Shown here in pieces: positions 29,188 to 55,435 of a stretch of DNA of 56,139 nt. The notes beneath the pieces are model-generated. The model had not been told where the DNA came from. It searched no databases and worked only from the letters and a program-made list of their open reading frames with translations. Origin of the DNA: a virus. The stretch lies in IMG/VR virus record IMGVR_UViG_3300045988_062174. One strand, 5' to 3'. The position numbers and the translations under genes were made by a program. Numbering within the stretch: the stretch's first letter is position 1; each line of letters begins with the position of its first letter.

Positions 29188-29217
29188 GCCCCGGTGTTCT
29201 GCCGGGGCTTCTTTTTT
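29188..29217 (+). terminator. Rho-independent terminator of the late/lysis operon
   Basis: GCCCCGG-tgttctg-CCGGGGC followed by TTCTTTTTT. Confidence 0.8.
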
Positions 29218-29424
29218 ATTGCGGAGCAAGTCCGTAGAATAAATCAATATACAAAATTCACAAAAAATCCCCTTCAAATTTGACGAAATGTGCCTGAGTA
29301 ACGATAGACGTTTTTAGATACTAACTTATGCCTAAGAGCTAAAAGCCGGTATAGAAGCGTGTACGATGTTATAGCCATATATGCTGAAAATGCGGTTCTG
29401 CAAAGTTCAATCTGAGTTCTGAAG

Positions 29425-29433
29425 TTATCCACA
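29425..29433 (+). promoter_or_regulatory. Perfect DnaA-box consensus TTATCCACA (single copy)
   Basis: Read directly in the lysis/early intergenic region. Confidence 0.3.
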
Positions 29434-29458
29434 GGAAGAATGTTGATAATGTGAATAA

Positions 29459-29472
29459 GTCGAAAAATCGAA
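29459..29472. promoter_or_regulatory. Operator-like site (imperfect): GTCGAAAAATCGAA
   Basis: Matches TTCGA-N4-TCGAA except for the first base. Confidence 0.35.
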
Positions 29473-29536
29473 GCGAAAAAACATTTCCTATATATAAAAC
29501 CTTGTAAGATTTCTTACATGATTTCTACACCATAAT

Positions 29537-29590
29537 TAGAGATAGAGTAAGAGATAGAGATAAAGATAGATAAAGAGATAAAAAAGAATA
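29537..29590. repeat. GATA/AGAGATA-rich low-complexity tract
   Basis: agagatagagtaagagatagagataaagatagataaagagataaaaaagaata. AGAGATAGAG occurs twice and there is no C over more than 50 nt. Confidence 0.8.
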
Positions 29591-29666
29591 GCACTTTGCG
29601 TTGCAAAGATGCTACACACACTAATTCGACAGCTCGAAAAATAATTGAAAAATAGAAGTAAAACAC

Positions 29667-29695
29667 TTGACACGTTCGAGTTATCGAAGTATAAT
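29667..29695 (+). promoter_or_regulatory. Consensus sigma-70-type early promoter P1 (TTGACA-17 bp-TATAAT)
   Basis: -35 TTGACA at 29667-72 and -10 TATAAT at 29690-95. The palindrome TTCGAGTTATCGAA (29675-88) lies in the spacer. Confidence 0.75.
29675..29688. promoter_or_regulatory. Operator-like palindrome TTCGA-GTTA-TCGAA within P1
   Basis: Perfect 5-bp inverted arms between -35 and -10. Confidence 0.6.
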
Positions 29696-29838
29696 AAAGT
29701 TACAAAATAACAAAACAAATACACGATACAAAGTAATGCAGGCGGCAAGGTTGATGGAATAGTACATATGCTTGTCAGACGGTTCCAACCCCGTAGGAAT
29801 GCAGAGGACAGAACAAATGAGAAAGGAGGAATTGCCCG

Positions 29839-30003
29839 TTGGGAAAAAGAAAACGCAGGATTGAAGAAAAAGAAGAAGAGCTGCTTTCAGAGCAGTTGAA
29901 GAAGACCAAAATTGAAATTTATGAATGCTGGACACATATCGTAATTTCCATAGTAACAATGCTGATAGCAGTTGTTACGGCAGTTTTGACCTGGTTCAAG
30001 TAA
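29839..30003 (+). CDS. 54-aa tail-anchored membrane protein (TTG start)
   Basis: AAAGGAGG lies 8 nt upstream of the TTG. The product reads GKRKRRIEEKEEELLSEQLKKTKIEIYECWTHIVISIVTMLIAVVTAVLTWFK. It is the first ORF after P1. Confidence 0.4.
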   Translation: MGKRKRRIEEKEEELLSEQLKKTKIEIYECWTHIVISIVTMLIAVVTAVLTWFK

Positions 30004-30084
30004 TGTTCTGAAAAACAGCTCGGTAGCCGGGGAGACAAGTTCTCCTCGTGCTACCAAGTTTATCACAGAGGAGGCAGAAAGTAA

Positions 30085-30249
30085 ATGAAGAAAAGCAGAA
30101 GAATGTTTTCACTGGCTATGCTGGTGTGTTTGATTGTCGGAGTTTCAACCGGAATCAGAGAATGTATCGGAGCCGCATGTGCGCTGGCATTCGTAAATGC
30201 AACACTCGGACTGGAAGATTTAGAGAAGAAAATGGAGGATAAGAAATAA
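30085..30249 (+). CDS. 54-aa protein with a signal-peptide / TM-like N-terminus
   Basis: GAGGAGG RBS. The product reads MKKSRRMFSLAMLVCLIVGVSTGIRECIGAACALAFVNATLGLEDLEKKMEDKK. Preferred over the overlapping track ORF 30048..30242. Confidence 0.4.
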   Translation: MKKSRRMFSLAMLVCLIVGVSTGIRECIGAACALAFVNATLGLEDLEKKMEDKK

Positions 30250-30668
30250 TGGATGCAAAGAATCAGCAGGACAGAGCAAAAATGGTAGAAGAAGCGGTTG
30301 GTCGTATGTGCCGCCTGGGAATGATGCCGCAGGTAATCACAAAATTCAGAAAGCAGGGAACGGTCCTTAAATCTGAGACGGCAGGTATTCTGTACGATTT
30401 GAACGATGAGGAGAAGAAAGCTGTTGCCGACTGGGAAGAAGAAAGTGGCGGTATTGTATACGCTGCAATATTGAGCAATATGGTGTTTGGAAGATGCCTG
30501 GCGTTGTTGTATGTTAGTGCAGAGGAAGAAGAGTGGGAACTGGATAGAGAAGACCTGGACGGGAGGATTTCACTTGCGTATGTGGCGAACCTGGATGCAC
30601 CGGATTGTTCCGAACTGGGAAGTATCGGAATTGCACCTGCAAACGGTGGATTGGTAAGAACAGAGTAG
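30249..30668 (+). CDS. Hypothetical early protein (139 aa)
   Basis: GGAGGA RBS and TAATG coupling. Confidence 0.55.
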   Translation: MDAKNQQDRAKMVEEAVGRMCRLGMMPQVITKFRKQGTVLKSETAGILYDLNDEEKKAVADWEEESGGIVYAAILSNMVFGRCLALLYVSAEEEEWELDREDLDGRISLAYVANLDAPDCSELGSIGIAPANGGLVRTE

Positions 30669-30679
30669 GAGGTGGCGTG

Positions 30680-30946
30680 ATGCTGGAGTATAACGAGCAG
30701 ACGGAAAATCTGATGGAAATAGCGATGATGCTGGAACAGCTCAAGGGAGAGAGTGAGTATCTGTTTGAGGTACTGACAGACATTGACAGCATAACCTGGA
30801 AACAGAAATTTGTGGACTGGGCGAATGAGTTCACAGAAACCTACGAGCCGAACAAGGATGTGTGGCCGGGAAATTACCTGGAAGTGATTGAGGGATTCGC
30901 CAGAGAGAAAATCTTGGAGTTTGCCGGAGTGGAGGACAAGGAATAA
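30680..30946 (+). CDS. Hypothetical early protein (88 aa, acidic)
   Basis: AGGAGG RBS before the ATG at 30680. Confidence 0.5.
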   Translation: MLEYNEQTENLMEIAMMLEQLKGESEYLFEVLTDIDSITWKQKFVDWANEFTETYEPNKDVWPGNYLEVIEGFAREKILEFAGVEDKE

Positions 30947-31158
30947 TGAATTTGAGAAGAGCGGGCAAAGGAATTGTCAGAAAAGGTAAGCGGCCGAGCG
31001 TATACAGAATCGGCTTCAATGATGGCGATGAAACAGAGCTGACCGCAAATGGCATAAATGAACTGGAGGAGTTATGGCGGTCCTTGTGTCCGGAATTTGA
31101 ATGCGAACCGGACAGCGTAAACTATGTAGAGAGAGTAGGATATGAGGAGGAAGACTGA
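30946..31158 (+). CDS. Hypothetical early protein (70 aa)
   Basis: Coupled start, GGAGGA RBS. Confidence 0.5.
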   Translation: MNLRRAGKGIVRKGKRPSVYRIGFNDGDETELTANGINELEELWRSLCPEFECEPDSVNYVERVGYEEED

Positions 31159-31574
31159 TGGGAAAAGAGTATGAGGAAATCAAAGCTGAGATAAGCGTAC
31201 GAATCAGCACAGAGGATATTGATGATATTGTTACAACGGCACTGGAGGGCGGTATTTGCTACTGGTGCAGGCGAGTAGAAGTCAAAGGAAAGTATCTCGG
31301 AGAATTTGCATCGGAGCAGATCAGCAGAGGAGGAGTCCTGGTATTGCATGATTCGGTGGATGGCAAGAAGAGAGAACTGAACAAGGAAAAGTTGCTCAGC
31401 GGAGTAAAACAGTATCTGGAGGATGAAGACAAGCCGTACAATATCCTGGTGGATGCGGAAGACTCTGTAGGATGCAGCAAAGGAGTCTATGAATTGGATT
31501 GTTGCATGGTAGATGCGACAGTGGCAGACATGATTATCCAGTATGCGATATTCGATGATATTATTTACGGATAG
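31158..31574 (+). CDS. Hypothetical early protein (138 aa)
   Basis: AGGAGGA RBS. The motif TTALEGGICYWC recurs, as I recall, in mobile-element proteins of unknown function. Confidence 0.55.
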   Translation: MGKEYEEIKAEISVRISTEDIDDIVTTALEGGICYWCRRVEVKGKYLGEFASEQISRGGVLVLHDSVDGKKRELNKEKLLSGVKQYLEDEDKPYNILVDAEDSVGCSKGVYELDCCMVDATVADMIIQYAIFDDIIYG

Positions 31575-31586
31575 GAGGACGCCGGG

Positions 31587-31907
31587 ATGGAGGAAAAGAA
31601 AATTGTAGTGTATGTCCTGCATGGGTTCTGGGAGAACGAATTTACAAATGGGTGTGCAGTGGTGGATGTGTCGATTGACCTGGAGACGGTCATGAAGAAA
31701 CTGGATGAAATCGTTGAGAATAAGGCACGAGAGTATGTGAAGGTGCAGGAGGATAAAGCCGAGGAAGAACGGGGATTCCGGTATTTTGAAATATGGGATG
31801 AGAACGGGCAGAGTGCTAAATTCTATATCGTAGAGCAGTATCTGGAATTATCGCAGAGTATGATGGAGGCGATTGCTGAATCATTAGCGAAAGGAGCAGG
31901 AAAATGA
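31587..31907 (+). CDS. Hypothetical early protein (106 aa)
   Basis: TAGGAGGA RBS. Confidence 0.55.
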   Translation: MEEKKIVVYVLHGFWENEFTNGCAVVDVSIDLETVMKKLDEIVENKAREYVKVQEDKAEEERGFRYFEIWDENGQSAKFYIVEQYLELSQSMMEAIAESLAKGAGK

Positions 31908-32431
31908 GAAAAATATATCAGTGTGAGCATACAGTACCGCCGGTTTGGTGGTTTACCTTCGCAGACAGAAATGCGTTGGGAGAGGAAATTGTAGTAGAGT
32001 TCCGAAAGAACGAAAACACGCATGGAAAGCATTCACTTCCGGCAATGTGGAAGAGAAAGGGATTCGTAGATAAAGAACCGGAAACGTGGTGGGGCGTTCA
32101 GACCTATGTAACGGACCGGCAGGGCAGATGTTCCGGAAAGTACAATCCGACAACCAAGGATGGGAAACTGAATTTTGAGTGGCTGTTGGAGGCAACCGAG
32201 GAAAATCGACAGAAGATAATTGATGAGATTTACCGCAGGGCAAACGCTATCTGGCACAGGGAAGATTGGTATCTGGAAGACCTGGAAGAAGCAATCCGGA
32301 GTACAGGCCTGGAAGTAACCCAGGAAAGAGTAGACAAGCTGTTGAAGGAGTGTCACCGGATATTTGATGATAAATCCGGAAGAAATGAGATGCTGGCCCA
32401 GAAAGCAAGCAAGCTGTTTGAGGAGGAGTAG
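31904..32431 (+). CDS. Hypothetical early protein (175 aa)
   Basis: ATGA coupling. Confidence 0.55.
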   Translation: MRKIYQCEHTVPPVWWFTFADRNALGEEIVVEFRKNENTHGKHSLPAMWKRKGFVDKEPETWWGVQTYVTDRQGRCSGKYNPTTKDGKLNFEWLLEATEENRQKIIDEIYRRANAIWHREDWYLEDLEEAIRSTGLEVTQERVDKLLKECHRIFDDKSGRNEMLAQKASKLFEEE

Positions 32432-32434
32432 GAA

Positions 32435-32695
32435 ATGTTTGGAAGACTGATTCTTGAAACCTATGTACAGGACAGATGCCGGGACGTCAGATTTAAGGAT
32501 GAACACTTGACCTGGTTCGAGATTAAAAAGAACGATGCGAAGCGGATTGTGAAGAGAATGGGGTGGGAGAGCCTGGCAGATTTTCTGAACAATTACACCT
32601 GGGATGATACGGAGATTCTGTATCAGATAGCTGATAACTGTGGAATGATAGTTGCTGATTGGATTGAAAGAGAGGTAGAGGATGGAAGAAATTAG
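32435..32695 (+). CDS. Hypothetical early protein (86 aa)
   Basis: GAGGAGGAG RBS. Confidence 0.5.
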   Translation: MFGRLILETYVQDRCRDVRFKDEHLTWFEIKKNDAKRIVKRMGWESLADFLNNYTWDDTEILYQIADNCGMIVADWIEREVEDGRN

Positions 32696-32903
32696 AGGAA
32701 CTGACTGCAACGAGCTGATAAAAAAGGTTCTGGAAGTTGAGGAGTTGCGACCAGTGGACCTGGCAAAGAAAATCGGGGTGAGCAGACAGTATGCGAACCA
32801 GATTATTTCCAGAAGCAAATGCGGTATTCGCTGTGATACGTTGGAGAAAATCGTAAGTGCGTTGGGATATGAAATCGCCCTGGTAAAAATAATTGAAAAA
32901 TAG
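32682..32903 (+). CDS. Small XRE/Cro-type HTH protein (73 aa), last gene of the first early operon
   Basis: The HTH reads LRPVDLAKKIGVSRQYANQIISRSK. Its last 6 codons and stop lie inside repeat copy 2. Confidence 0.65.
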   Translation: MEEIRGTDCNELIKKVLEVEELRPVDLAKKIGVSRQYANQIISRSKCGIRCDTLEKIVSALGYEIALVKIIEK

Positions 32904-32980
32904 AAGTAAAACACTTGACACGTTCGAGTTATCGAAGTATAATAAAGTTACAAAATAACAAAACAAATACACGATACAAA
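32885..32980 (+). repeat. 96-bp direct repeat copy 2 (promoter/operator module)
   Basis: Identical by eye to 29637-29732. Confidence 0.95.
32915..32943 (+). promoter_or_regulatory. Consensus early promoter P2 (TTGACA-17 bp-TATAAT), duplicate of P1
   Basis: -35 at 32915-20, operator TTCGAGTTATCGAA at 32923-36, -10 at 32938-43. Confidence 0.75.
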
Positions 32981-32994
32981 CGGAGGTAGTCAAG

Positions 32995-33279
32995 ATGAAC
33001 GCATTAGTAATATACAGAAGCCTGTTAAGTGAAAGAGATAAAAATGAATTTGGTTATCCGGAATGGGATGCAGCACAGAAGATGCTGCGGGTGTTCATTG
33101 AAAAAGCCCTGGAAGCTGGAGAAGAAAGCATTGCTGATGAAATCGTAGATGAGCTGTATTCTTTGAGTGATTGTGGATGCACGCTGGAAGATGAGGCAGT
33201 GAAAGTAGATTTGGAGATGCTTGAAAAGTATGGATTTGGTAGCCGAGCAGACAAAGTAAGAGAGCTTTGTTGGAAGTAG
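32995..33279 (+). CDS. Hypothetical early protein (94 aa, acidic)
   Basis: CGGAGG RBS. First ORF after P2. Confidence 0.55.
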   Translation: MNALVIYRSLLSERDKNEFGYPEWDAAQKMLRVFIEKALEAGEESIADEIVDELYSLSDCGCTLEDEAVKVDLEMLEKYGFGSRADKVRELCWK

Positions 33280-33302
33280 GCTTATTTTTTTTACCTGCAA
33301 GG

Positions 33303-33316
33303 TTCGCAAAATCGAA
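33303..33316. promoter_or_regulatory. Operator-like site TTCGCAAAATCGAA followed by gTAATAAT
   Basis: It has the same operator-then--10 arrangement as P1/P2, with one arm mismatch. Confidence 0.4.
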
Positions 33317-33341
33317 GTAATAATTCAAAGGAGCGAAGAAT

Positions 33342-33596
33342 ATGGCAAAGAGATCAAGAGCAAACAGAACTGAAAAGGCTACATACCAGAACATCCGGAA
33401 TGAGCACAAATACATAGACGTTGTTCATCATGGAGATGGTCATTATTACATAATCCAGTACATAAAGCATGAGCTTCCAGAAAGAACGGTTGTCAATTAT
33501 ATGGGAACCAGATGCGGACACAAGCAGAAGTTCAGAATTGGAAAAGGGACGCTGCTGAGCATCCTGGAAGATTACAAGAAAGTTGAGGAGGCGTAG
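33342..33596 (+). CDS. Hypothetical early protein (84 aa, basic)
   Basis: AAAGGAG RBS. Confidence 0.5.
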   Translation: MAKRSRANRTEKATYQNIRNEHKYIDVVHHGDGHYYIIQYIKHELPERTVVNYMGTRCGHKQKFRIGKGTLLSILEDYKKVEEA

Positions 33597-33601
33597 AAGG
33601 T

Positions 33602-34027
33602 ATGACAAAACAGGAATTTCAAAAGAGAATTGGGGCTGAGATAAGCCAGAAAGATTATTCCATCGTAGAGCATGTGTATACATGGCATCCGTCCATCAGC
33701 GAGGTAGAGGGTAAGGAACAGATAGCAGAGTTGTATAAGTCCTTTGGAATGCCAATCATCAAGAATATGATGGAGGCTGCGAACTATGCAGAGACGCTTG
33801 ACCGGGCAATGGCACAGGCACAGAGACAGGTGGAGGAGCTGAGAAAGCGAATCATCAGAGTTGCGAAAGGAGACCTGGTAGTGGAACAGTGCATTACAGA
33901 GGCTAAGAAATTATTTGAGACGGTCAACGATCCGCATGAGTGGGATGTGGCAGTTTCTTATCTGAAAAAAAGATATGGAGCAGATGCAGTAGACGAAGCC
34001 ATTAAAATTGAGCATCTGGAAATGTAG
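33602..34027 (+). CDS. Hypothetical early protein (141 aa)
   Basis: GAGGAGG RBS. Confidence 0.55.
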   Translation: MTKQEFQKRIGAEISQKDYSIVEHVYTWHPSISEVEGKEQIAELYKSFGMPIIKNMMEAANYAETLDRAMAQAQRQVEELRKRIIRVAKGDLVVEQCITEAKKLFETVNDPHEWDVAVSYLKKRYGADAVDEAIKIEHLEM

Positions 34028-34042
34028 GAGAGGAGTGAGAGT

Positions 34043-34761
<719 letters not shown>

Positions 34762-34764
34762 TGT

Positions 34765-34941
34765 ATGCAGGATATGAAAGTGGCACTGTTCACGATTGAG
34801 GATTTGAAAAAGAATCATCCGGATTATTACAGACGGTTAAACCCGAAATGCCAGGTTTGCCAGAATATTTTAAGCAGCAGTGAATGCGATATGTGCGAGG
34901 ATTTTGATATGTTCGCCAGAGTAAAGGAGGAAATGAAGTGA
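34765..34941 (+). CDS. 58-aa Cys-rich protein
   Basis: My own translation gives MQDMKVALFTIEDLKKNHPDYYRRLNPKCQVCQNILSSSECDMCEDFDMFARVKEEMK. Confidence 0.4.
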   Translation: MQDMKVALFTIEDLKKNHPDYYRRLNPKCQVCQNILSSSECDMCEDFDMFARVKEEMK

Positions 34942-35183
34942 GACAGGCAGAGTTTGCGGAACTGAGCAGGGAAGTAATGCCGGTACTGGATAAGCTGACG
35001 GAGATTGCAGGCCAGCATGGAACGGCAGAAAAGCTGGTAAGCATTACATTGAGTGCAGAAGGTTATATTCATTTTACGGTACATGACAGTGGAATGTGTC
35101 TGAGCAGATTAAAAAGAGAAGATGCACCGGAGTTGGAAATCAGAAAACAGTTATCCCAGGAAATGGGAAGAGAGGAGAACTGA
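34938..35183 (+). CDS. Hypothetical early protein (81 aa)
   Basis: GTGA coupling, AAGGAGG RBS. Confidence 0.5.
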   Translation: MRQAEFAELSREVMPVLDKLTEIAGQHGTAEKLVSITLSAEGYIHFTVHDSGMCLSRLKREDAPELEIRKQLSQEMGREEN

Positions 35184-35184
35184 T

Positions 35185-35514
35185 ATGGCAAGTTTGAATG
35201 TTAAGACAGAGTATTCAGAGTATAAGGACTGTAAGTTAAGAGTCGGTAAGTATGTGGAAGACAATAGCGTTGCTGTTGAAATTTATAACAGATGGGATGG
35301 ACCTATTGCGAGAGTAACCACCTGCCTGTGCGACCATTCGTTGGCAGAAGATGAGGCGTATGTTGACACCAATAATTGCCCTTGGGCGGTAGCTCTTCTG
35401 GAAGAAAACGGATTTGCGGAGAGAACCGGGCGTACTCGGAGAAGCGGTTACTGCGAATATCCGGCAATGAAATTTGACAGAAGCAAGATGGCAGAGTTTG
35501 AGGAGGAAAGTTAA
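35185..35514 (+). CDS. DUF4313-like protein (109 aa)
   Basis: The pattern YVEDNSVAVEIYN...GPIARVTTCL...DTNNCPWAVALLEENGFAERTG...SGYCEYPAMKF resembles DUF4313 of conjugative elements. Confidence 0.5.
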   Translation: MASLNVKTEYSEYKDCKLRVGKYVEDNSVAVEIYNRWDGPIARVTTCLCDHSLAEDEAYVDTNNCPWAVALLEENGFAERTGRTRRSGYCEYPAMKFDRSKMAEFEEES

Positions 35515-35515
35515 G

Positions 35516-35953
35516 ATGGAGAGCTATAGAGAGTTAAGAGACAGACAGCAGAAAGAGTTCAATGAGCTGCCGTTGGGGTTTGCGTTCTCAGATAAGCAGT
35601 TTGATGAAATGATGGGAAAATGGGGACTTGACCCGGAGAAAGACCTGGATAAGATTTATCGGATTCCGGGCGGTGGATTCATCCAGAAGAAAGATCACAA
35701 GCATTTCCATGAGGTACTGGACCGGCACAACGCTGAGATGGAGGCGGCAAAGGCGGCCGATGAAGATGGAACAGGATTTCTTTACCAGATGTTCAAGTAC
35801 GAACTGGATAATCACGAGTACGGATACACCGGAGATCTTGAGGATACGCTGGATTGCTTAGGATTGACTTGGGAAGAACTGAAAGCGTCACCGGTAATGC
35901 TGAAAGCTCTGGATAAGGCTTCGACAGAAATCAGAGAAAGAGAGGGATGCTAA
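35516..35953 (+). CDS. Hypothetical early protein (145 aa)
   Basis: AGGAGGAAAG RBS before the ATG at 35516. Confidence 0.55.
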   Translation: MESYRELRDRQQKEFNELPLGFAFSDKQFDEMMGKWGLDPEKDLDKIYRIPGGGFIQKKDHKHFHEVLDRHNAEMEAAKAADEDGTGFLYQMFKYELDNHEYGYTGDLEDTLDCLGLTWEELKASPVMLKALDKASTEIREREGC

Positions 35954-35955
35954 GT

Positions 35956-36159
35956 ATGGATGAGAATAAACGCATAGTAATATGCAGACGCTGTAAAAAG
36001 CCGGAATACTGGGGAGAAATGAGATGGCTTTCCGGATTTTGCGTATGCAGAGATTGCTACAAAGCGCAATGGGAAAGCGAAAATCATAAGCCGTATACCT
36101 GGGATGACCTGGATGGAAAAAGACCAACGATGGAAGAATTTGAAAAGGAGAATGAGTAA
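35956..36159 (+). CDS. Zinc-finger protein (67 aa; CRRC...CVCRDC)
   Basis: Cys pairs. The start could alternatively be 35947. Confidence 0.5.
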   Translation: MDENKRIVICRRCKKPEYWGEMRWLSGFCVCRDCYKAQWESENHKPYTWDDLDGKRPTMEEFEKENE

Positions 36160-36803
36160 TGGCAAGAGAAGAGCTAAAGACAATCGAAGGATGGCACAAG
36201 AGCGGCTGCAACAGTTGGGATGAATATTGTAAGCCGGGAGATATGGTAGACCAGGGAGTAGCAGATTACTTCCTGGATATCCTGCCACCACGGACAATGA
36301 CAAGTGATTACTTCCAGGTAGGAGAGCCGCACAGTCATGCAATCAACCCGAAGACAATGAAGAACTGCGGCACATATGCAACATTCGCCGTAAGAGGAAA
36401 AGAGATCTGGGAGTATTGCGGAAACTGTTTTCCTCACATGTGTGTAGATGTTGAGAAATTCAAGAAACGGGATAGCGTGCAGGCTTTTTTGCATGAGACA
36501 TACAAGCTGGTGTGCGGGATTGCACAGGCTCCGAGACCTCATATCTTCTGCAAAGACGGTTTTGAAATGAGTGTCCAGGCTGGAGATGGATTGTATTGTG
36601 AGCCACGGGTGAATTTGGAAAGCGGAGAATATGCAGCTTGCGAAGTCGGATATCCCAGCCAGAAAGAAGAGTTGTTGATGCCGTATATTGAAGATCCGAC
36701 AGAACCGACAAAGGCAGTGTACCCGTATGTGCCGGTTGAAGTGATTGAACAAGTGATTGAGAAACACGGCGGCTGGTTTGACGCCAGGATTCCATTTGCA
36801 TAA
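36159..36803 (+). CDS. Hypothetical early protein (214 aa)
   Basis: TAATG coupling. Confidence 0.6.
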   Translation: MAREELKTIEGWHKSGCNSWDEYCKPGDMVDQGVADYFLDILPPRTMTSDYFQVGEPHSHAINPKTMKNCGTYATFAVRGKEIWEYCGNCFPHMCVDVEKFKKRDSVQAFLHETYKLVCGIAQAPRPHIFCKDGFEMSVQAGDGLYCEPRVNLESGEYAACEVGYPSQKEELLMPYIEDPTEPTKAVYPYVPVEVIEQVIEKHGGWFDARIPFA

Positions 36804-36818
36804 AGGAGGCGAAGCAGT

Positions 36819-36881
36819 ATGAAGAAATTTATGAAGAGCATGAAGAAGTTCTTTAAGACTATGAAGAAGCTGGCAAAGTAG
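36819..36881 (+). CDS. 20-aa lysine-rich amphipathic peptide MKKFMKSMKKFFKTMKKLAK
   Basis: AAAGGAGG lies 9 nt upstream of the ATG. It fills a 90-nt gap. The motif ATGAAGA occurs four times. Confidence 0.35.
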   Translation: MKKFMKSMKKFFKTMKKLAK

Positions 36882-36893
36882 AGGAGAAGGAGC

Positions 36894-37166
36894 ATGAACA
36901 AAGCAAAAAACATGACAACCGGGGCAGGTTATCTGCTCCGGAGAGAAGATTACAAGAGAGTCAAGAAAATGGATCGACAGCAATTTGAATCGTTCTGTAA
37001 GAATCTTTATATGACAGCATATGAAGAGGGCAGAAAGTCGGTTCCTGGGATTGACATTACGGAAGTGCAGAAAGCAATCAGCGAGACACCGGGAATCGGA
37101 GCGAAGAGACTGGAGGCAATCATGGAAAGCCTCAACAGCAGATTTGCAAAGGAGGGAGATGTGTGA
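36894..37166 (+). CDS. Hypothetical early protein (90 aa)
   Basis: GAGGAGAAGGAG RBS. Confidence 0.55.
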   Translation: MNKAKNMTTGAGYLLRREDYKRVKKMDRQQFESFCKNLYMTAYEEGRKSVPGIDITEVQKAISETPGIGAKRLEAIMESLNSRFAKEGDV

Positions 37167-37435
37167 TGAAGAGAACGGAGCGGACGGTAAATGTCAAAGC
37201 CTGGGGCTGTCTGGGAGCAAAGAGAGTTGTTTTATACGAAGACAGAGATGAACTTAGATTTACGGATGGGTTCCACGATATGAGAATGACCCAGGCCAGA
37301 ATGGAAGCCTTTGTTCCTGGCGGCGATGCAGTTCTGGCTGATGTGTACCGGAGAGTGAGAGGAACCAGAAGCTGGCATCCGGTTGTAAAAGAGCTGAAAA
37401 AATTATTGGATGAGAGAGGGGGAAAAGCGGTATGA
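37163..37435 (+). CDS. Hypothetical early protein (90 aa)
   Basis: ATGA coupling. Confidence 0.5.
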   Translation: MMKRTERTVNVKAWGCLGAKRVVLYEDRDELRFTDGFHDMRMTQARMEAFVPGGDAVLADVYRRVRGTRSWHPVVKELKKLLDERGGKAV

Positions 37436-37656
37436 AGATTGAACCGAGGAAAGAATCGGACAGAGGCGGTTGGCTGTGTATGCCGTTGTTAGCCAGTGTG
37501 CCGGAAGGAAAGGAAGGATGGGAAAAGGTGCGTTGCCCGGTATGTGGAGCACTTTGCTGGAAAAGACCGGAGGATGCAGGCGCGATTTGCCATAGCAAAC
37601 TCGACGGAGCGTGTTGTACGTTATGTGCTTTGAAGAAAGGAGCTGGCAGGTTATGA
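37432..37656 (+). CDS. Zinc-ribbon protein (74 aa; CPVC...CTLC)
   Basis: Cys pairs and ATGA coupling. Confidence 0.5.
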   Translation: MKIEPRKESDRGGWLCMPLLASVPEGKEGWEKVRCPVCGALCWKRPEDAGAICHSKLDGACCTLCALKKGAGRL

Positions 37657-38342
37657 AGAGAAGCGAGCAGATCGTAGAATTGATGGACGATGTAAAGAAG
37701 ATTATCTCACAGATGGCAGTGGTGGATGTATGTGAGGAAGAGAAGCCGGTAGAGGTTGGAAAAACCATCATGACAAGCCGGGAGGTGGCGGATATGTTCC
37801 AGGAATATCACTCGGTTACATATCGCAGAATCGCACAGCTTATCGTGGAGCTGGAACCGATGGAGCAGACAGAGTTCAAAATGGCACAGTTCAAGGCAAG
37901 ACACCAGGAGTACCCGATGTGGGAACTGACTGAAAAAGCCTGCAAGCTCTATCTGACGAGAATGAAAAGAGATAGATGCTACGGTAAAAAGAAGACCGGC
38001 ATTGAGAAGATGGAAAAAGAGCTTCGTTGCCGGGTAAGCGGTCAGAAACTGGTGGAGGATGCGGAGAACGGATATAAGGACGTCCGGGAACTGTTCAATC
38101 AGTTTATTACTGGTCCGAAGGGCGAAAACCGGGAAATTCCGGAACTGACGCAGGCCTACGAACGGCTGAGAGCGGTTATGGAAGCACAGGTTCCGGGTGC
38201 GAAAGCTGATACGGCGATAACGTCTGCGGTATACGATGTGGCGATAGAGTCAGAAATGCAGGGGTTCATTTACGGATTTCAGTTGTTCGGAGCGGTTCTG
38301 CAGGGATGTGGCAGCACAAGAAGATGTGCCGGAGAAAATTAA
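37653..38342 (+). CDS. Rha-like phage regulatory protein, putative
   Basis: The segment IMTSREVADMFQEYHSVTYRRIAQLI...YPMWELTEKACKLYLTRMK resembles the Rha family pattern. Confidence 0.45.
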   Translation: MKRSEQIVELMDDVKKIISQMAVVDVCEEEKPVEVGKTIMTSREVADMFQEYHSVTYRRIAQLIVELEPMEQTEFKMAQFKARHQEYPMWELTEKACKLYLTRMKRDRCYGKKKTGIEKMEKELRCRVSGQKLVEDAENGYKDVRELFNQFITGPKGENREIPELTQAYERLRAVMEAQVPGAKADTAITSAVYDVAIESEMQGFIYGFQLFGAVLQGCGSTRRCAGEN

Positions 38343-38360
38343 GGGCAGACAGGAGGAGTC

Positions 38361-38570
38361 ATGGAGAATAATTTGGTAAAGCTGGAACCATGCCCGTTCT
38401 GCGGTTGCAGAGATAGAAGAGTGGGAATCCGTAGGATGGGTAACAACGGATATAGAGTTTGTTGCTCGAAGTGCGGAAGTCTCGGACCTCATGTATCAGT
38501 GAAGGACTGGAACGGACACAAGAAGCTTGCGCAGAAAGAGGCAAGAGAAAAATGGAATGAAAGGGCGTGA
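38361..38570 (+). CDS. Lar-family restriction alleviation protein
   Basis: LEPCPFCG...YRVCCSKCGSLGP...AQKEAREKWNERA matches the Lar pattern (CPFCG...C..CG...A...WN.RA). Confidence 0.65.
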   Translation: MENNLVKLEPCPFCGCRDRRVGIRRMGNNGYRVCCSKCGSLGPHVSVKDWNGHKKLAQKEAREKWNERA

Positions 38571-38574
38571 GAAA

Positions 38575-38916
38575 ATGGATAGAGAAGAACTTATGAGAGA
38601 GTTGGAAGATATGTTCCGGGATGAGCCGGATAACAATAAACTGAATGCGGCTCTGGACCTTGCGGATGCGTATGCAGAACATGAATACGAGAAAAGAAAA
38701 AAGTCTGAAAAAGTACAGTGGGGAAAAGATGTGTGTGCTGCGGCAGGAGAGAGTGTAGACGAACTTCCGGAGAAGGTGTTCATTTCTATTTCAGAGAAGT
38801 TAGAGGATAGAATGTTGGAGAATAACGGTGATCTGGAATATGCAGTAGTCCAGGAAGTTGTAAATGAGTTCTGGGAGCAGGAGGAAGAGGAAGATGCTGA
38901 TTGTAAGCCAGAATAA
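38575..38916 (+). CDS. Hypothetical acidic protein (113 aa)
   Basis: ATG at 38575 following the Lar stop. Confidence 0.5.
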   Translation: MDREELMRELEDMFRDEPDNNKLNAALDLADAYAEHEYEKRKKSEKVQWGKDVCAAAGESVDELPEKVFISISEKLEDRMLENNGDLEYAVVQEVVNEFWEQEEEEDADCKPE

Positions 38917-39205
38917 AGAGAAGGTGTTGTGGTTCGGAAGAGCCTTTAACGCCTTGGAATATTCAGAACAGGTAGACCACAAGGGAAAGAAGGAAACCGT
39001 CAGACACACAATTTGCATATCTGATGGTTGTCTGGAAGAGATTGCAGAGTATCAGACAAAGGAACGGTGCTTGCAGGTGCTGAAAGATTTCTGCGGAGCA
39101 TATGAAAATGAATGTTATACGGTTGAGTTCTTCGACACTGCGGCCCAGGCAACAAGACCGGCAATGTACAAGAAGAACATCGTGTATGAGTTCCCGGCAG
39201 AGTAA
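38894..39205 (+). CDS. Hypothetical early protein (103 aa)
   Basis: GGAGGAAGAGGAAG precedes the ATG at 38894. Confidence 0.5.
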   Translation: MLIVSQNKEKVLWFGRAFNALEYSEQVDHKGKKETVRHTICISDGCLEEIAEYQTKERCLQVLKDFCGAYENECYTVEFFDTAAQATRPAMYKKNIVYEFPAE

Positions 39206-39219
39206 TGTGAAGGAGGGCG

Positions 39220-39516
39220 ATGATGGAACACAAGATCACAATCATGAAATATCAGACGATGTTTCCGGGGATGACAAAAAAGCTGTTCGATGAGAAAGAG
39301 AGATTCTATCAGATTGCAGTCATCAGCATCAGACTGGATGAACTCCAGACAAAAGGTGCGGTACTGCAGAAAATGGGAAAACCAACAAAGAGCGGCACTA
39401 GAATGACGTTTGCACCGGTGCGGAGTGCTGGAGAGTATGAGGCAGAGATGCAGAGGATTCTGGAAGACGGGAAAAAGCTGGGTCTGAAATTTGAAAAGAA
39501 AAAGGAGGAAAAGTAA
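39220..39516 (+). CDS. Hypothetical early protein (98 aa)
   Basis: GAAGGAGGG RBS. Confidence 0.5.
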   Translation: MMEHKITIMKYQTMFPGMTKKLFDEKERFYQIAVISIRLDELQTKGAVLQKMGKPTKSGTRMTFAPVRSAGEYEAEMQRILEDGKKLGLKFEKKKEEK

Positions 39517-40913
39517 TGGAGAGCAGTGAAGTTGTAAAAATCAGAGTGGAGAATATATATCCGCATCCGGATAATCCGAGAAAAGACCTCGGAGATGTGA
39601 CAGAGTTGGCAGAATCAATGAAGAAGCATGGAGTCATGCAGAATTTGACGGTTATTCCGGCGAGTGCATTGACAGCAGACCCGGAAGATCAGCCGGATGC
39701 TGATAAGGTTTCGGTAATCAGTGATTTCCATGTACTGATAGGACATAGAAGATTGGAGGCGGCAAAATTAGCAGGCCTGGTAGAAGTTCCATGCCAGATT
39801 AAAAGCAAGATTTCCCGGAAAGAGCAGGTAGGCATCATGCTGTTGGAGAATATTCAGCGTGAAGACCTTACCATCCAGGAGCAGGCCCAGGGATTCCAGA
39901 TGATGCTCGATTTGGGAGATACGGAAGACCAGATTGCAGAAAAGACCGGATTCAGTAAATCAACCGTCCGGCATAGGCTGAATATTGCGAAGCTGGACCA
40001 GGAGAAATTGAAAGAGAAGCAGCAGGACGATGCTTTTCAACTCACATTGAAAGACCTGTACGAACTGGAGAAAATCAAGGATGTAGAAATGCGAAATGAG
40101 ATTCTGGATAAGGCCAGCAGCTCCAGAGATATTGTGAGCCGGGTTCAGAACGAGATTACAAATGCTAAGAAGAAAGAGAACGCAAAGAAGCTCAAAGCGA
40201 AGCTGAAAAAGATGGGGGTAGAGAAAGCACCAGAGCAGTATTCCCAGCAGATGTACAATGGAAAGTGGAAAACGGTAATAGAGATTAACTTGACAGACGA
40301 TGTGCCGGATGAGATTGAACTGCCAGAGCAGAAAGGGCAGATGTACTGGTATGAGACATGGCGAGATTTGAGAATCGTTACGAAAGCTCCGAAGGAAAAG
40401 AAGAAGCTGACAAAAGAAGAGCTGGCGAAGAAAGAGCAGGATAGAAAGTCAAAAGAGGTAAAGGAAATTCTGAAAGGAAGTGCTGCCAGAAGAAAAGATT
40501 TTATCTCCGGAATTATTTCTGGAAAAATCCCGGCTCTTAAGGACGAAAACGCAGCGAGAGAAAAAATCTGGGAAGCCCTTGTGCTGATTGGTTACGGTCT
40601 GTACGGTTCGATTGCGAGAGGCTTTTTCCTGGAGGACGATGAGTGGAAGTACAGCGAAGAAGAGAGAAAGCAGGCAACTGAGACGTTCCAAGGATTGAGC
40701 ATCACACATCAAATGCTTGTGTTTCTGCATGGGTCGATGAATACGGTAGGAGAAACCTATGATTATAGCGGACGCTACGCCAAAGAAAAGGCGGATAAAC
40801 TGCTGAAAGGGTATGAAGCCCTCAAATTGTTTGGGTGGTTCTTTGAGATGGATGAGGAGAAGCGAGTTCTGGACGGAACAAGTGAGTTATTTGCACCTGC
40901 GGAAGAAAAGTAA
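39516..40913 (+). CDS. parB: ParB/Spo0J-family protein (465 aa)
   Basis: IENIYPHPDNPRK...VLIGHRRLEAAKLAGLVEVPC...LLENIQREDLT...IAEKTGFSKSTVRHRLNIAKL gives the ParB N-terminal boxes plus an HTH, followed by a long C-terminal extension. Confidence 0.85.
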   Translation: MESSEVVKIRVENIYPHPDNPRKDLGDVTELAESMKKHGVMQNLTVIPASALTADPEDQPDADKVSVISDFHVLIGHRRLEAAKLAGLVEVPCQIKSKISRKEQVGIMLLENIQREDLTIQEQAQGFQMMLDLGDTEDQIAEKTGFSKSTVRHRLNIAKLDQEKLKEKQQDDAFQLTLKDLYELEKIKDVEMRNEILDKASSSRDIVSRVQNEITNAKKKENAKKLKAKLKKMGVEKAPEQYSQQMYNGKWKTVIEINLTDDVPDEIELPEQKGQMYWYETWRDLRIVTKAPKEKKKLTKEELAKKEQDRKSKEVKEILKGSAARRKDFISGIISGKIPALKDENAAREKIWEALVLIGYGLYGSIARGFFLEDDEWKYSEEERKQATETFQGLSITHQMLVFLHGSMNTVGETYDYSGRYAKEKADKLLKGYEALKLFGWFFEMDEEKRVLDGTSELFAPAEEK

Positions 40914-40965
40914 ACTACTGACTTGCCAACTGGCGTAAAGTCGGTTATTATAATAGGAAGAAGGA

Positions 40966-40984: not shown

Positions 40985-41032
40985 TAAGTAGTGAAATGAA
41001 GGCACGCCCTCTACATGGGGGATGCGATGATG

Positions 41033-41068
41033 ATTTTGTAGAGTGATTCACTACAAAATAGCGATACA
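41033..41068. repeat. Inverted repeat ATTTTGTAG-N9-CTACAAAAT plus the second copy of the CTACAAA-TAGCG-TACA motif (attP or parS candidate)
   Basis: The 9-bp perfect arms are at 41033-41 and 41051-59. Confidence 0.55.
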
Positions 41069-41091: not shown

Positions 41092-41124
41092 AGCCAGGGG
41101 TGATTAAACCTCTGGCTTTTCTTT
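41092..41124. terminator. Bidirectional terminator hairpin between parB and int
   Basis: AGCCAGGGG-tgattaaa-CCTCTGGCT is flanked by a T-run on the + strand (TTTCTTT) and, on the minus strand, by TTTCTTC. The int stop codon lies in the loop. Confidence 0.6.
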
Positions 41125-42837
41125 GTAGATGAACGTATGAGATAATCCGTTGCGGAATGTAATAGAGTGAACGGCTCCGTCTTTGAAAACGATGTTGTCT
41201 ATGATGCTGCTGAGAAAAGAATCAAGGACCTCTGGAGAAACGGTAGCACTCAGCGATTGAAAGCTGACGTAATTTCGGTCAGTGAGCTTCTGGGAGAGTA
41301 TGAAGTTGCTTGCCTTGGCGATAAATTCATCATCAGTGATAGACTGTTGCAGGCTGTCTTCTGATGCCAGGAACGCCAACTTGTCCTCGACTTCTTCCAG
41401 GGAGTCCGAAAGCTGAATCTTCTGAGTGAGGTATTCGGATTCCGACATGGCTTTTTCGGAATAGAGGAACAGCTTGTTCAGACGGTCAATAGCTCTTTCC
41501 AGACGGACTTTTTCCTTTTTGAGTTTTGATAGCTGCAATGGCGGCTCGGAGCCTGTTTTGATTTTGACGTCTTTTCCGAAGACCTCTCCCTTGATGGTTC
41601 CGGTGCGGAGCGTATGAAACAGATCATGTAATCCGTCCGGGGCAATGGCGGCCACCGGGGAGAAAGTATCGCCGGAGAGTAGCTGCTGTTCCAGTTCCTG
41701 TATGCTCGTTTCCGGAGAGAACGCTTTTTGAGCGTTGAGCATATTGAGAATGTAGTTGAAGACGAACTCGCCAACGATTGGGTCTGAGGTAGATTTTCCG
41801 GTACACCACAGCTTGCTTTTTCTGTGCGTAGGGCAGAAGTAGAGAGAATAGCGTCTGCCAGTAGTCTTCTTTATGGTGGAAATGGAACTGGTCATAGGTT
41901 GACCGCAATTTCCACAGATGAGCAGGCCGGAGAAAATGTGCGTGTATTTGCTCTTGCCACTCTTACGAAATGATTTGAGCCTGCGGTTGGATTCCAGGAG
42001 TGCAAGGATACGTTCTTTCTGTTCTCGGCTTACGATGGCCGGGTGGTGGTCTTTCACGGTAATCCATTCGGATTTATCCTTAGGACGTTGCCGGTCCCCT
42101 TCCTTAAGGCGGTTGTACTGGTAATCGCCGCAGTAGAATACGCTGCGAAGAATAATATCCAGAGAGACAGGAGACCAGTCATTACCGGCACGAGTCCGGT
42201 AGCCATGTTCGTTCAGATACCGGGCCAGGTAAACCAGGGAGCGGAGTTCTTCGTATTTGTCATGAATCAGATGGGCGATGTTGTACTCGTCGGAGTTGAA
42301 GCTGAAAGCCTGTTCCTCCGGGTCATAATCGTAGCCGTAAGGAATACGTCCGCCGTTCCACTGCCCGTTGCTGGCTCTGGAAATCATAGTGGCAGTGACA
42401 CGTTCCGAGGTCATGTTACGCTCCAACTCCGCAAAGACAAGGATAATTTTGAGCATCGCTTCTCCCATAGCCGTACTGGTGTCGAATTGCTCGTTTTTCG
42501 AGACAAAGGTAACGCCCAGGTTTTTAAGCTCCTGGTACATCTCTGCAAAGTCCAGAAGGTTTCTGGAGATGCGGTCAATCTTCCAGACCAGCAGATGCGT
42601 GTACGTGCCGGTCCGAAGCTGAGACATCATTTTCTGAAATTCTGGCCGGATGGTATTTTTGCCAGAGTACCCGGCATCCTCGAAGATTGTCACATCGTCA
42701 GTGTTCAGTATCAGCTTGGCGTAGGCAATCAAATCTTGACGCTGCATAGGCAGAGAGTCCCTGTCGATCTGATGCAGTGTAGAGACTCGTATGTAGATAG
42801 CCACTTTTGCGTGAGTGGCAGCACTGTTTGAAATCAT
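41104..42837 (-). CDS. int: Large serine recombinase (integrase)
   Basis: 577 aa. The N-terminal resolvase motif is KVAIYIRVSTLHQIDRDSLPMQ, followed by a recombinase domain, a zinc ribbon (CGNCGQ...FCPTHRK) and a coiled-coil C-terminus. Confidence 0.92.
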   Translation of the reverse strand: MISNSAATHAKVAIYIRVSTLHQIDRDSLPMQRQDLIAYAKLILNTDDVTIFEDAGYSGKNTIRPEFQKMMSQLRTGTYTHLLVWKIDRISRNLLDFAEMYQELKNLGVTFVSKNEQFDTSTAMGEAMLKIILVFAELERNMTSERVTATMISRASNGQWNGGRIPYGYDYDPEEQAFSFNSDEYNIAHLIHDKYEELRSLVYLARYLNEHGYRTRAGNDWSPVSLDIILRSVFYCGDYQYNRLKEGDRQRPKDKSEWITVKDHHPAIVSREQKERILALLESNRRLKSFRKSGKSKYTHIFSGLLICGNCGQPMTSSISTIKKTTGRRYSLYFCPTHRKSKLWCTGKSTSDPIVGEFVFNYILNMLNAQKAFSPETSIQELEQQLLSGDTFSPVAAIAPDGLHDLFHTLRTGTIKGEVFGKDVKIKTGSEPPLQLSKLKKEKVRLERAIDRLNKLFLYSEKAMSESEYLTQKIQLSDSLEEVEDKLAFLASEDSLQQSITDDEFIAKASNFILSQKLTDRNYVSFQSLSATVSPEVLDSFLSSIIDNIVFKDGAVHSITFRNGLSHTFIYKEKPEV

Positions 42838-42889: not shown

Positions 42890-43465
42890 CTACGCCCTTT
42901 TAGTCGGGCAATTCAATATTACATCCCTTAATCCGGCAAAATCCGTTATGTAAGGTTTTAGAGCTTTCAGCGAATTAAGAGAAATATTTTTCTGGTTGGG
43001 CTTTTGCTCGTTGAGCACATAGGTAGGCAACACATAGAACTCCCAGTATTCCAGGGCAAGCGGCGAGACGTCTTTTGTCAGTGCTTTGTAAAGGCAAAAA
43101 ACGTAGAGGTCAGAATGACGCTTGACGTCCGGAGAATATCCGGCTTTCGGGTCCCAGGCTCTGTGAGGTGCTATGCTGAACTGTATATGCTCGTGGTACG
43201 CTTCATCCCAGGATTGGAGATAAGAAGCGGATTTGACTTCGATTCGCTGTCCGGTAGGACTGGTCAAATCAAAGGGGAGCCAATCAGTTCGCATTTTCGA
43301 ATCGGGGGGGGGTAATAACGCACTGTGTACTATGTATTCTGCAAGTACGCCCCGGTCTGTGTTGTTGAGCAGATCACTGTAAGCCCAGGACCAGAAATCT
43401 ACTACCGACAAGCCGGTGTCTTCCCCATGAAAAGTAAATTTGTTATTGGATGTTAATTGCTCCAT
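42890..43465 (-). CDS. PD-(D/E)xK-like nuclease-fold protein (191 aa), lysogeny-module moron
   Basis: Candidate catalytic pattern AEY...PFDLTSPTGQRIEVKSASY (E...D...ExK). It overlaps the upstream gene by 13 nt and contains a C9 tract. Confidence 0.6.
   Translation of the reverse strand: MEQLTSNNKFTFHGEDTGLSVVDFWSWAYSDLLNNTDRGVLAEYIVHSALLPPPDSKMRTDWLPFDLTSPTGQRIEVKSASYLQSWDEAYHEHIQFSIAPHRAWDPKAGYSPDVKRHSDLYVFCLYKALTKDVSPLALEYWEFYVLPTYVLNEQKPNQKNISLNSLKALKPYITDFAGLRDVILNCPTKRA
43304..43312. repeat. Homopolymer G9 (C9 on the coding strand) inside the nuclease-like gene
   Basis: Read directly as atcgggggggggtaat. It encodes the PPP of ALLPPPDSK. Confidence 0.95.
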
Positions 43466-43776
43466 GCAGGAATCCTCCCTTCGCAGAGAGAGGCTATGCC
43501 ATGGATGTTGCCGCCAAGAGCAAAGACCAACGCCCGGCGGCAGTCGGTGTCTGTCAGAATATCGGAATAGGTATGGACCAACGGCAAGAACTCACGAACC
43601 GAAAGTGAGAGTTTCTTCCGCAGGTGTGCTATTTTGTTAATTGTTCCGGCAGACAGCGATGCAGGCCCTTCCTCCAGAGAAGAACAGAAGGAAGAGAGAT
43701 AGAGCAGTAGAGCCGCAGCATCGCAATTCAGTTGTTCTTCGGTCCGGGCCAGGAAAAAGTATTTCTTTGAGTCCAT
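43453..43776 (-). CDS. Hypothetical protein (107 aa), partner of the nuclease-like gene
   Basis: AGGAGGG RBS. It lies 41 nt downstream of the repressor gene on the same strand. Confidence 0.5.
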   Translation of the reverse strand: MDSKKYFFLARTEEQLNCDAAALLLYLSSFCSSLEEGPASLSAGTINKIAHLRKKLSLSVREFLPLVHTYSDILTDTDCRRALVFALGGNIHGIASLCEGRIPAWSN

Positions 43777-44215: not shown

Positions 44216-44229
44216 TTCGAGAAATCGAA
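44216..44229. promoter_or_regulatory. Operator palindrome TTCGA-GAAA-TCGAA in the switch region
   Basis: Perfect arms, 21 nt upstream of the repressor start codon. Confidence 0.55.
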
Positions 44230-44238
44230 GAAAAACTC

Positions 44239-44267
44239 TTTACAAATTCGAGTTTTCGAGCTACAAT
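44239..44267 (+). promoter_or_regulatory. Rightward early promoter (TTTACA-17 bp-TACAAT) with embedded operator TTCGAGTTTTCGAG (44247-60)
   Basis: Same architecture as P1/P2. Confidence 0.6.
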
Positions 44268-55289: not shown

Positions 55290-55435
55290 TATCCGGAGCT
55301 GGTGTAGGCAGCACACGACTATTCCATAGTTGAGGCCCTGTTCATCGCAGGGCTCCGGTCCAAAAACAACGGCATCGCATCCGAAAGGGTACGGTGCCTT
55401 TTTAATGCAACGAGAGAAGGGAGAGTTGATAAGCA

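Follow-up and report, generated by a model that had tools for sequence, protein, structure and literature searches.

The 56,139-nt DNA of IMG/VR virus record IMGVR_UViG_3300045988_062174, hereafter the window, is a complete temperate siphophage-type genome. Between its lysis genes and its integrase lies a block of small genes on the + strand (29839-40913), which is probably a repressor-gated accessory island for counter-defence and host takeover, built of two tandem operons and carried by a temperate siphophage of Lachnospiraceae. The block contains an orthologue of the anti-CRISPR gene acrIIA11 among conserved and mostly uncharacterized small genes. Its operons are headed by two promoters of identical sequence, which have an operator-like palindrome in common with the phage immunity switch. 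Whole cassettes are missing or exchanged in related phages, and in the prophage the block forms the attR-proximal end. An initial annotation had likened the block to the leading region of a conjugative element and singled it out as the most likely place for undescribed counter-defence genes. The first comparison fails, the element being a tailed temperate phage; the second idea holds in part, as detailed below. Coordinates are compiled in Table 1.

Small genes around a Cas9 inhibitor

The genes g15 and g16 belong to a single reading frame whose product is a full-length orthologue of AcrIIA11, with residues 1-179 aligned to the solved protein (PDB 9utm_A) at E 1.6e-103. AcrIIA11 is an experimentally validated Cas9 inhibitor (PMC6739867, PMC12022753); functional metagenomics had yielded it from a siphophage of Lachnospiraceae, as published in 2019 (PMC6739867). 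The protein acts on Sp, Sa and Fn Cas9, trapping the complex at off-target sites rich in protospacer-adjacent motifs and slowing cleavage (PMC12022753). The initial annotation did not recognize this gene. When the protein products of g01-g30 were compared with all PDB sequences (phmmer), AcrIIA11 was the sole match, and no homology was detectable to other solved Acr, Ocr, ArdA, Tad, Acb or Aca proteins. By megablast, the block has a single match among 50,697 phage records, 469 bp long, and this is the acr gene.

Around it, 31 + strand genes with Shine-Dalgarno support are called in the block, or 30 if g15 and g16 are merged. The predicted array of co-oriented genes between the lysis terminator and the integrase is thus real, with a count below the announced figure of about 35. 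A micro-open reading frame of 20 codons comes on top of the 31, and no competing gene on the - strand is needed. Gene junctions overlap in 13 of 30 cases, an operon-like trait. As described earlier, most products are small (27/31 below 150 aa) and many are acidic (isoelectric point below 6 in 21/31). Several are Cys-rich, with 10 Cys in g22, eight in g25 and six in g27; CxxC pairs are found in g17, g21, g25 and g27. Ratios of nonsynonymous to synonymous polymorphism (pN/pS), calculated against related contigs for all 30 genes with g15 and g16 merged, range from 0.03 to 0.50 (pooled value 0.14). Because purifying selection is seen in all 30, the open reading frames of the block are real genes.

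Few of these genes have names. Pfam reproduces every family cited in the initial annotation, namely Lar_restr_allev (g27), DUF4313 (g19, 3.8e-18), Phage_pRha (g26) and ParB_N with HTH_ParB (g31), and adds HTH_3 (g10) and DUF7659 (g20, 1e-49), the latter not named before. PHROGs families are matched by 11 of the 30 scanned products (g31 was left out of the scan), with functional annotation limited to the helix-turn-helix (HTH), Rha and Lar matches, and an NCBIfam scan of the block returns ParB and Lar only. About 20 products match nothing in Pfam or PHROGs. Domain scans of the products reveal no replication, structural or housekeeping domain, in line with what had been proposed; the canonical early module of the phage lies elsewhere, at 44.4-55.3 kb. 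None of the 5027 defence-system models of PADLOC matches in the block.

The Lar-family zinc-ribbon protein g27 scores 39.2 bits with Pfam PF14354 (cut-off 28.6) and 35.3 with NCBIfam TIGR03655, below the cut-off of 39.6; by its family, it may alleviate restriction. Operon 1 opens with g01 and g02, membrane-anchored peptides of 54 aa, and also encodes g06, a member of phrog_2355. The micro-open reading frame MKKFMKSMKKFFKTMKKLAK may be a small peptide gene. Its product is cationic and amphipathic, and relatives carry variants of 20 or 13 aa.

The last gene, g31, encodes a long ParB. Its residues 1-225 resemble Spo0J/Noc, with an N-terminal domain, an HTH and the arginine-patch motif GHRRLEAA (GxxRxxA). 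The similarity extends over residues 5-206 in the comparison with Spo0J 1vz0 (E 4.5e-21) and is reflected in domain matches (ParB_N 2e-11, HTH_ParB 2.2e-5, TIGR00180 68.9 bits for a cut-off of 58.45). The C-terminal 240 residues (226-465) match nothing, including any solved ParB. Neither a ParA domain in the scanned open reading frames nor a canonical parS at up to three mismatches is found. The g31 family is present in 166 Clostridia genome loci and is widespread without the island; among the neighbours of 80 long-ParB loci in Clostridia, block genes are rarely present. Therefore, this ParB is not a marker of the island. Silencing, anchoring and counter-defence are candidate roles.

Promoters with operator-like palindromes

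Each operon is preceded by one copy of an exact 96-nt direct repeat that holds a promoter of sequence TTGACA-17-TATAAT. P1 and P2 are the only 12/12 matches to this consensus in the whole 56-kb window, for about 0.006 expected by chance in the block region, and the claim that the genes stand behind consensus promoters is borne out. Both spacers contain the palindrome TTCGAGTTATCGAA. Sites of the type TTCGA-N4-TCGAA with at most one mismatch occur nine times in place of the 2.4 expected, a number attained in 0/100 shuffles. The perfect copies (29625, 29675, 32923 and 44216) all belong to block or immunity promoter regions, and copies with one mismatch start at 29459, 33303 and 44247. The second of these, TTCGCAAAATCGAA between g11 and g12, is a perfect TTCGAGAAATCGAA in the relative L032.

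The same palindrome type occurs in the immunity switch, where TTCGAGAAATCGAA stands upstream of the rightward (lytic) promoter and TTCGAGTTTTCGAG lies within its spacer. As the lytic promoter has its palindrome in the spacer like P1 and P2, the three follow one design. The two promoters of the switch seem to be face-to-face, the leftward one (TTTACT-17-TACAAT with a TG extension) being at 44389-44361, and their transcripts would overlap by about 80 nt.

Conservation points in the same direction. Among 54 promoter copies, gathered through a downstream anchor outside the operator and not independent of one another, the -35 hexamer and the left arm are invariant and the right arm varies in two, while about 25 changes fall in the 4-nt centre of the palindrome and the 2-nt linker. 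This pattern fits constraint on the palindrome arms. In heteroimmune relatives, compared for covariation of operator and repressor, the spacer of the lytic promoter, again of consensus type, likewise contains a palindrome proper to these phages (TGGAA-N2-TTCCA), of which no second copy was found within reach on the island side. Upstream of P1, the long AT-rich leader includes further operator-like sites (29459-29472, one mismatch; 29625-29638, perfect) and TAGAGA-type tandem repeats (29537-29591); it has no match in Rfam.

Because the block promoters carry the operator-like palindrome of the lytic promoter, we infer that the two are repressed together; the island would then be expressed upon infection or induction and silent in the lysogen. 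Candidates for binding the palindrome are CI, the Cro-like protein and g10, which operon 1 itself encodes. The palindrome in common with the lytic promoter favours repressor-gated early expression.

Cassette variation and integration

The island was compared in about 25 related IMG/VR contigs, where it is 85-99% conserved. In three independent contigs or variants (L014, L021 and L019/L044), g01-g10 are exactly missing and one promoter copy is left, which is the product expected if recombination took place between the 96-nt repeats. In another lineage, operon 1 is shorter. Distal cargo differs between phages whose integrase, CI and Cro are 98-99% identical, and it includes PemK, YopX, DUF1653, DUF6273, a HTH protein of LexA type, a PAPS-reductase domain, DUF5688, RadC and DUF551. 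Islands of relatives also hold DarA_C, LPD28 and DpnD-PcfM, and homologues of g10 (38-41% identity) are kept in alternative islands.

Integrated forms define the position of the block. In L032-L034 the order is lysin, island, ParB and host cbiG, and on the other prophage side, in L046, the integrase adjoins host queA, sbcC and sbcD. The block is the attR-proximal end of the prophage, and comparison of attP in the window with attR in L032 and attL in L046 locates the crossover near 41021-41029. L046 had been considered as an alternative island and was rejected, since it represents host DNA (queA, sbcC, sbcD) across attL. The attP sequence GGGGATGCGATGATGATTTTGTAG mimics the 3' end of host queA, coding for …GDAMMIL and stop compared with …GDAMFIK and stop in the host. 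Therefore, integration by the serine integrase rebuilds the C-terminus of QueA. Between the ParB stop codon and attP, an outward promoter-like site (TTGCCA-17-TATTAT, 10/12) is present at 40923-40951; in the prophage it would read over attR toward host cbiG.

An island placed after the lysis genes is not peculiar to this phage. The architecture recurs in unrelated Clostridia phages, namely FP_Brigit, an Oscillibacter phage (with DarA_C and DUF7659), a prophage with DUF4313 and a phage with at least 40 small genes 3' of the lysin.

Gene families met on plasmids

Searched by tblastn against 72,556 plasmids, the whole block gives matches for g03, g20, a weak segment spanning g15-g16 and the generic ParB N-terminal domain only, with identities of at most 49% and no synteny with the block. 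Homologues of g03 on Finegoldia pFMC and Enterococcus pEG001 lie in co-oriented, leading-region-like runs of small genes, where ssb, a JAB/RadC protein, a zincin, an N6-methylase and PemK are neighbours and a MOBP relaxase is nearby. A mobilizable plasmid of Paraclostridium has DUF7659 in a comparable run. For DUF4313, three contexts were sampled, a phage genome, a prophage end and a small-gene array of unclassified type, all of them co-oriented arrays of phages or mobile elements; conjugation genes were detected in none of the three. Two block families, g03 and DUF7659, are shared with plasmid arrays.

The families seem to move as a group. In an unrelated phage (L083, 9543-10309), DUF7659 stands beside DUF4313, with ArdC-N, an ADP-ribosylglycohydrolase, two methylases and two ParB_N genes as neighbours; another small-gene array (L087, 2668-4453) has DUF4313 together with a homologue of g03. 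The AlphaFold2 models are confident for g03 (pLDDT 93.8) and g20 (pLDDT 90.9), and in BFVD the g03 model matches two uncharacterized siphovirus proteins only.

Proposed functioning and competing explanations

The island could work as follows. In the absence of repressor, on fresh infection or prophage induction, host RNA polymerase would fire strongly at P1 and P2, the sigma-A-type promoters of the two operons. The small proteins made would include AcrIIA11, inhibiting Cas9, the Lar-type protein, possibly alleviating restriction, and about 27 others of unassigned target. A phage HTH repressor would next occlude P1, P2 and the lytic promoter; in the lysogen CI could play this part, and at a later stage of infection the Cro-like protein or g10. 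Upstream, the terminator of the late operon would keep late transcription out of the block. The 96-nt promoter repeats would act as recombination handles through which whole cassettes are gained and lost, and distal cargo would be swapped among homoimmune phages.

Several observations weigh against such an island. Counter-defence annotation concerns only two of the 31 genes. Foldseek finds no significant relative in the PDB for g20 (best E 1.3) or g03 (best E 0.08). In the window, acrIIA11 itself is interrupted by an in-frame TGA (34360-34362) at a Trp position. The codon is TGG in AcrIIA11 and in 15/15 related contigs, in all of which the gene is intact, and recoding of TGA was therefore rejected; the stop is either a nonsense allele private to the window or an error of base calling. 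The interval between lysis genes and attR is also the classical site of lysogenic-conversion genes. As to regulation, in the Oscillibacter phage of the same layout, the island palindrome GTCCCAAATAGGGAC differs from the immunity operators TACC-N4-GGTA. Therefore, an island of this layout is not, as a general rule, controlled by the immunity repressor.

The private palindrome of the Oscillibacter island would rather suit an autoregulated locus of the acr-aca type, in which g10, as an Aca-like or AcrIIA1-N-terminal-domain-like protein, and not CI, binds the palindromes. Expression would then combine an early burst with a low constitutive level in the lysogen, shielding the prophage from self-targeting, and the palindromes of the immunity switch would reflect cross-talk or shared ancestry. 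The block shows two hallmarks of such loci, a homologue of a validated Acr and, present twice, a strong promoter with an inverted repeat, and g10 is a candidate for a third, the in-operon HTH protein: it belongs to HTH_3, closes operon 1 directly 5' of P2 and has homologues that persist in alternative islands. Published acr promoters of Firmicutes have a palindrome to which an HTH protein from the locus itself binds as autorepressor (bioRxiv 10.1101/787200). However, g10 has no detectable similarity to solved Aca or AcrIIA1 sequences (phmmer against PDB), and the immunity promoter has its palindrome at the same spacer position as P1 and P2. Moreover, variants devoid of g01-g10 retain the promoter and its palindrome before g11, which argues against g10 as the sole binder. 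Such an explanation is thus unlikely, without being negligible. Still less probable is a lysogenic-conversion (moron) or maintenance region, expressed by the prophage and active in superinfection exclusion, host physiology or prophage/episome maintenance. The position between lysis genes and attR would agree with it, as would promoters of its own 3' of a terminator, the small membrane peptides g01 and g02 at the head, the ParB gene at the end and the PemK toxins of alternative islands. Against it stand promoters with the operator family of the lytic promoter, which is necessarily off in the lysogen, a validated anti-CRISPR, the lack of any match to the defence-system models, and a ParB for which neither ParA nor canonical parS was found. 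Descent from the leading region of a conjugative plasmid or integrative and conjugative element, as opposed to mere analogy, is highly improbable. The homologues of g03 and DUF7659 in mobilizable-plasmid arrays near ssb, methylase, JAB protein and relaxase genes, and RadC, PemK, LPD28 and DpnD-PcfM in the islands of relatives, would speak for it; but the plasmid matches are few, distant and without synteny, the block has no detected ssb, psiB, ardA, methylase, oriT or relaxase, and the post-lysis architecture recurs in many unrelated Clostridia phages.

The repressor-gated counter-defence island therefore remains the probable reading, and it is tempting to extend it. The 96-nt repeats might be portable handles for repressor-gated anti-defence operons; g03, DUF7659/DUF4313 and the long ParB might be new counter-defence families shared by Clostridia phages and plasmid leading regions; and the island might be the phage counterpart of such a leading region. 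This extension is tentative and more doubtful than not.

The block is a good but not unprecedented place to seek new anti-defence genes. Most of its genes are uncharacterized, as the initial annotation held; the acrIIA11 locus, however, was published in 2019, its small open reading frames in an accessory phage region were already noted, and no strong inhibitor emerged when 17 genes taken from two loci with acrIIA11 homologues were assayed on SpyCas9 (PMC6739867). Type II-A CRISPR and other defences abound in gut Lachnospiraceae (PMC6739867). The block offers about 27 conserved, selection-constrained candidate counter-defence genes beside a validated Cas9 inhibitor. Few gut Lachnospiraceae phages are tractable. 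Notable features are the duplicated promoter-operator at a cassette boundary and the gene families in common with plasmid arrays, among which g03 and DUF7659 have confident models and no PDB relative. The 29-bp promoter-operator is a simple, directly testable regulatory element. Cassette-deletion variants exist in nature. If the regulatory model is true, the island would provide a ready system to study timing and exchange of anti-defence cargo by temperate phages, and would tie phage islands to plasmid leading regions through common gene families.

Genome surroundings of the island

The terminator 3' of the endolysin would close the late/lysis operon and shield the block from late transcription. 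The first 99 bases of the window are repeated at its end (1-99 and 56041-56139), the first 20 of them recurring from 56041 on; this direct repeat indicates either that the assembly closes into a circle or that the termini are redundant over a short length. At the left end, 5' of the packaging genes, a GNAT-phage-like protein is encoded at 41-793, followed by a weak ParB_N-like open reading frame (739-1665). On the - strand between the integrase and CI genes, two open reading frames of 191 and 107 aa (42890-43776) have no match in Pfam or PADLOC; the position would be typical of a prophage-expressed accessory gene or exclusion gene. A tRNA-Gly(TCC) gene (55293-55362) lies at the right end of the early region, and an Rfam search of the whole window returned no family. 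The nearest isolated phages are Faecalibacterium phages, for single genes only, and homologues of block proteins are found in Lachnospiraceae and other gut Clostridia.

Table 1. Coordinates of the island, its regulatory sequences and the surrounding phage features
Feature	Position	Strand	Remarks
Packaging, structural and lysis genes	up to 29117	+	endolysin last
Endolysin	27561-29117	+	
Intrinsic terminator	29188-29208	+	9-bp stem, 7 G-C pairs, T-run; 3' of endolysin
Non-coding leader, 394 nt	29243-29636	+	AT-rich (GC 0.38); 93-99.5% conserved in 26 related loci
96-nt direct repeat, copy 1	29637-29732	+	holds P1
P1	-35 29667-29672, -10 29690-29695	+	TTGACA-17-TATAAT; TTCGAGTTATCGAA at 29675-29688
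Block	29839-40913	+	lysis terminator on one side, attP/serine integrase on the other
Operon 1 (g01-g10)	29839-32903	+	
g03	30249-30668	+	139 aa; alpha/beta model (AlphaFold2)
g10	32682-32903	+	73-aa XRE-type HTH protein; ends operon 1
96-nt direct repeat, copy 2	32885-32980	+	holds P2
P2	32915-32943	+	TTGACA-17-TATAAT; TTCGAGTTATCGAA at 32923-32936
Operon 2 (g11-g31)	32995-40913	+	
Operator-like palindrome TTCGCAAAATCGAA	33303-33316	+	1 mismatch; between g11 and g12
acrIIA11 orthologue (g15+g16)	34216-34761	+	single reading frame; PDB 9utm_A
g19 (DUF4313) and g20 (DUF7659)	35185-35953	+	adjacent
Micro-open reading frame MKKFMKSMKKFFKTMKKLAK	36820-36882	+	20 codons; AAGGAGG ribosome-binding site; built on 21-nt tandem repeat
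g26, Rha-like regulator	37653-38342	+	borderline, Phage_pRha 31.1 bits (cut-off 29.9); phrog_518
g27, Lar-family zinc-ribbon protein	38361-38570	+	phrog_599
g31, orphan long ParB	39516-40913	+	last gene of prophage
attP core region	41017-41041	+	crossover within ~41021-41029 (GATGCGATG)
Large serine integrase	41104-42837	-	Resolvase, Recombinase and Zn_ribbon_recom domains
CI-type repressor	43818-44195	-	Phage_CI_repr 3.9e-8; candidate palindrome binder
Immunity switch	44216-44267	+	perfect palindrome TTCGAGAAATCGAA at 44216-44229
Rightward immunity (lytic) promoter	44239-44267	+	TTTACA-17-TACAAT; TTCGAGTTTTCGAG at 44247-44260 in spacer
Cro-like HTH gene	44430-44849	+	
Canonical early module	44.4-55.3 kb		RecT, DUF3799 exonuclease, replisome organiser, G39P-like loader, RusA

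Relation to known systems

The early accessory operon of the lambda/Rac PL promoter, with ral, lar, kil and gam, also groups non-essential small early genes, restriction alleviation included, under a promoter that shares operators with the lytic promoter. In contrast to it, the block is 11-14 kb away from the immunity region, beyond attP and the integrase, and reads toward them instead of being divergent.

The AcrIIA11 locus of a Clostridium_Q (Lachnospiraceae) siphophage has the same anti-CRISPR gene; there too, a temperate siphophage of the gut has small open reading frames in its accessory region, with evidence for horizontal exchange (Forsberg et al. 2019, PMC6739867). That study characterized a metagenomic fragment with five open reading frames, whereas the block is an 11-kb island of two operons; the parts of the article consulted describe neither the two-operon island and its duplicated operator promoter nor the cassette variants, the ParB terminus or the attP/queA junction. 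In addition, the acrIIA11 allele of the window, unlike the published gene, has a nonsense codon. With the Firmicutes acr loci autorepressed by AcrIIA1 N-terminal domains or Aca proteins (Osuna et al., bioRxiv 10.1101/787200; PMC9410906), the block has in common a strong promoter with a conserved palindrome, an in-operon HTH gene, small variable anti-defence genes and a temperate phage host genome. It differs by 31 genes in place of two to five, by two identical promoters, by a palindrome common to the immunity switch and by a g10 without detectable homology to Aca/AcrIIA1 structure sequences. In position, acr loci of Listeria may be similar to the block, being placed between lysin and attR.

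The anti-defence islands of plasmid leading regions (Samuel et al. 2024, PMC11541004) likewise consist of co-oriented, small and mostly uncharacterized genes. Other points of likeness are anti-CRISPR and anti-restriction functions, a presumed first expression on entry and the two families in common with plasmid arrays. Leading regions are enriched in ssb, psiB, ardA, orphan methyltransferases and toxin-antitoxin genes beside acr genes (PMC11541004). None of these genes is represented among the 31 products in Pfam and NCBIfam scans, and AcrIIA11 and Lar are the only counterparts in the block; no relaxase is encoded by any scanned open reading frame, and no oriT was found in the block. Further, the block resides on a phage and is served by double-stranded sigma-70-type promoters with operators, not by single-strand promoters. 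As these hallmarks (ssb, psiB, ardA, orphan methylases, oriT and relaxase) are missing, the resemblance to a leading region, judged by gene content, is one of functional analogy and a shared accessory gene pool, not of membership or derivation.

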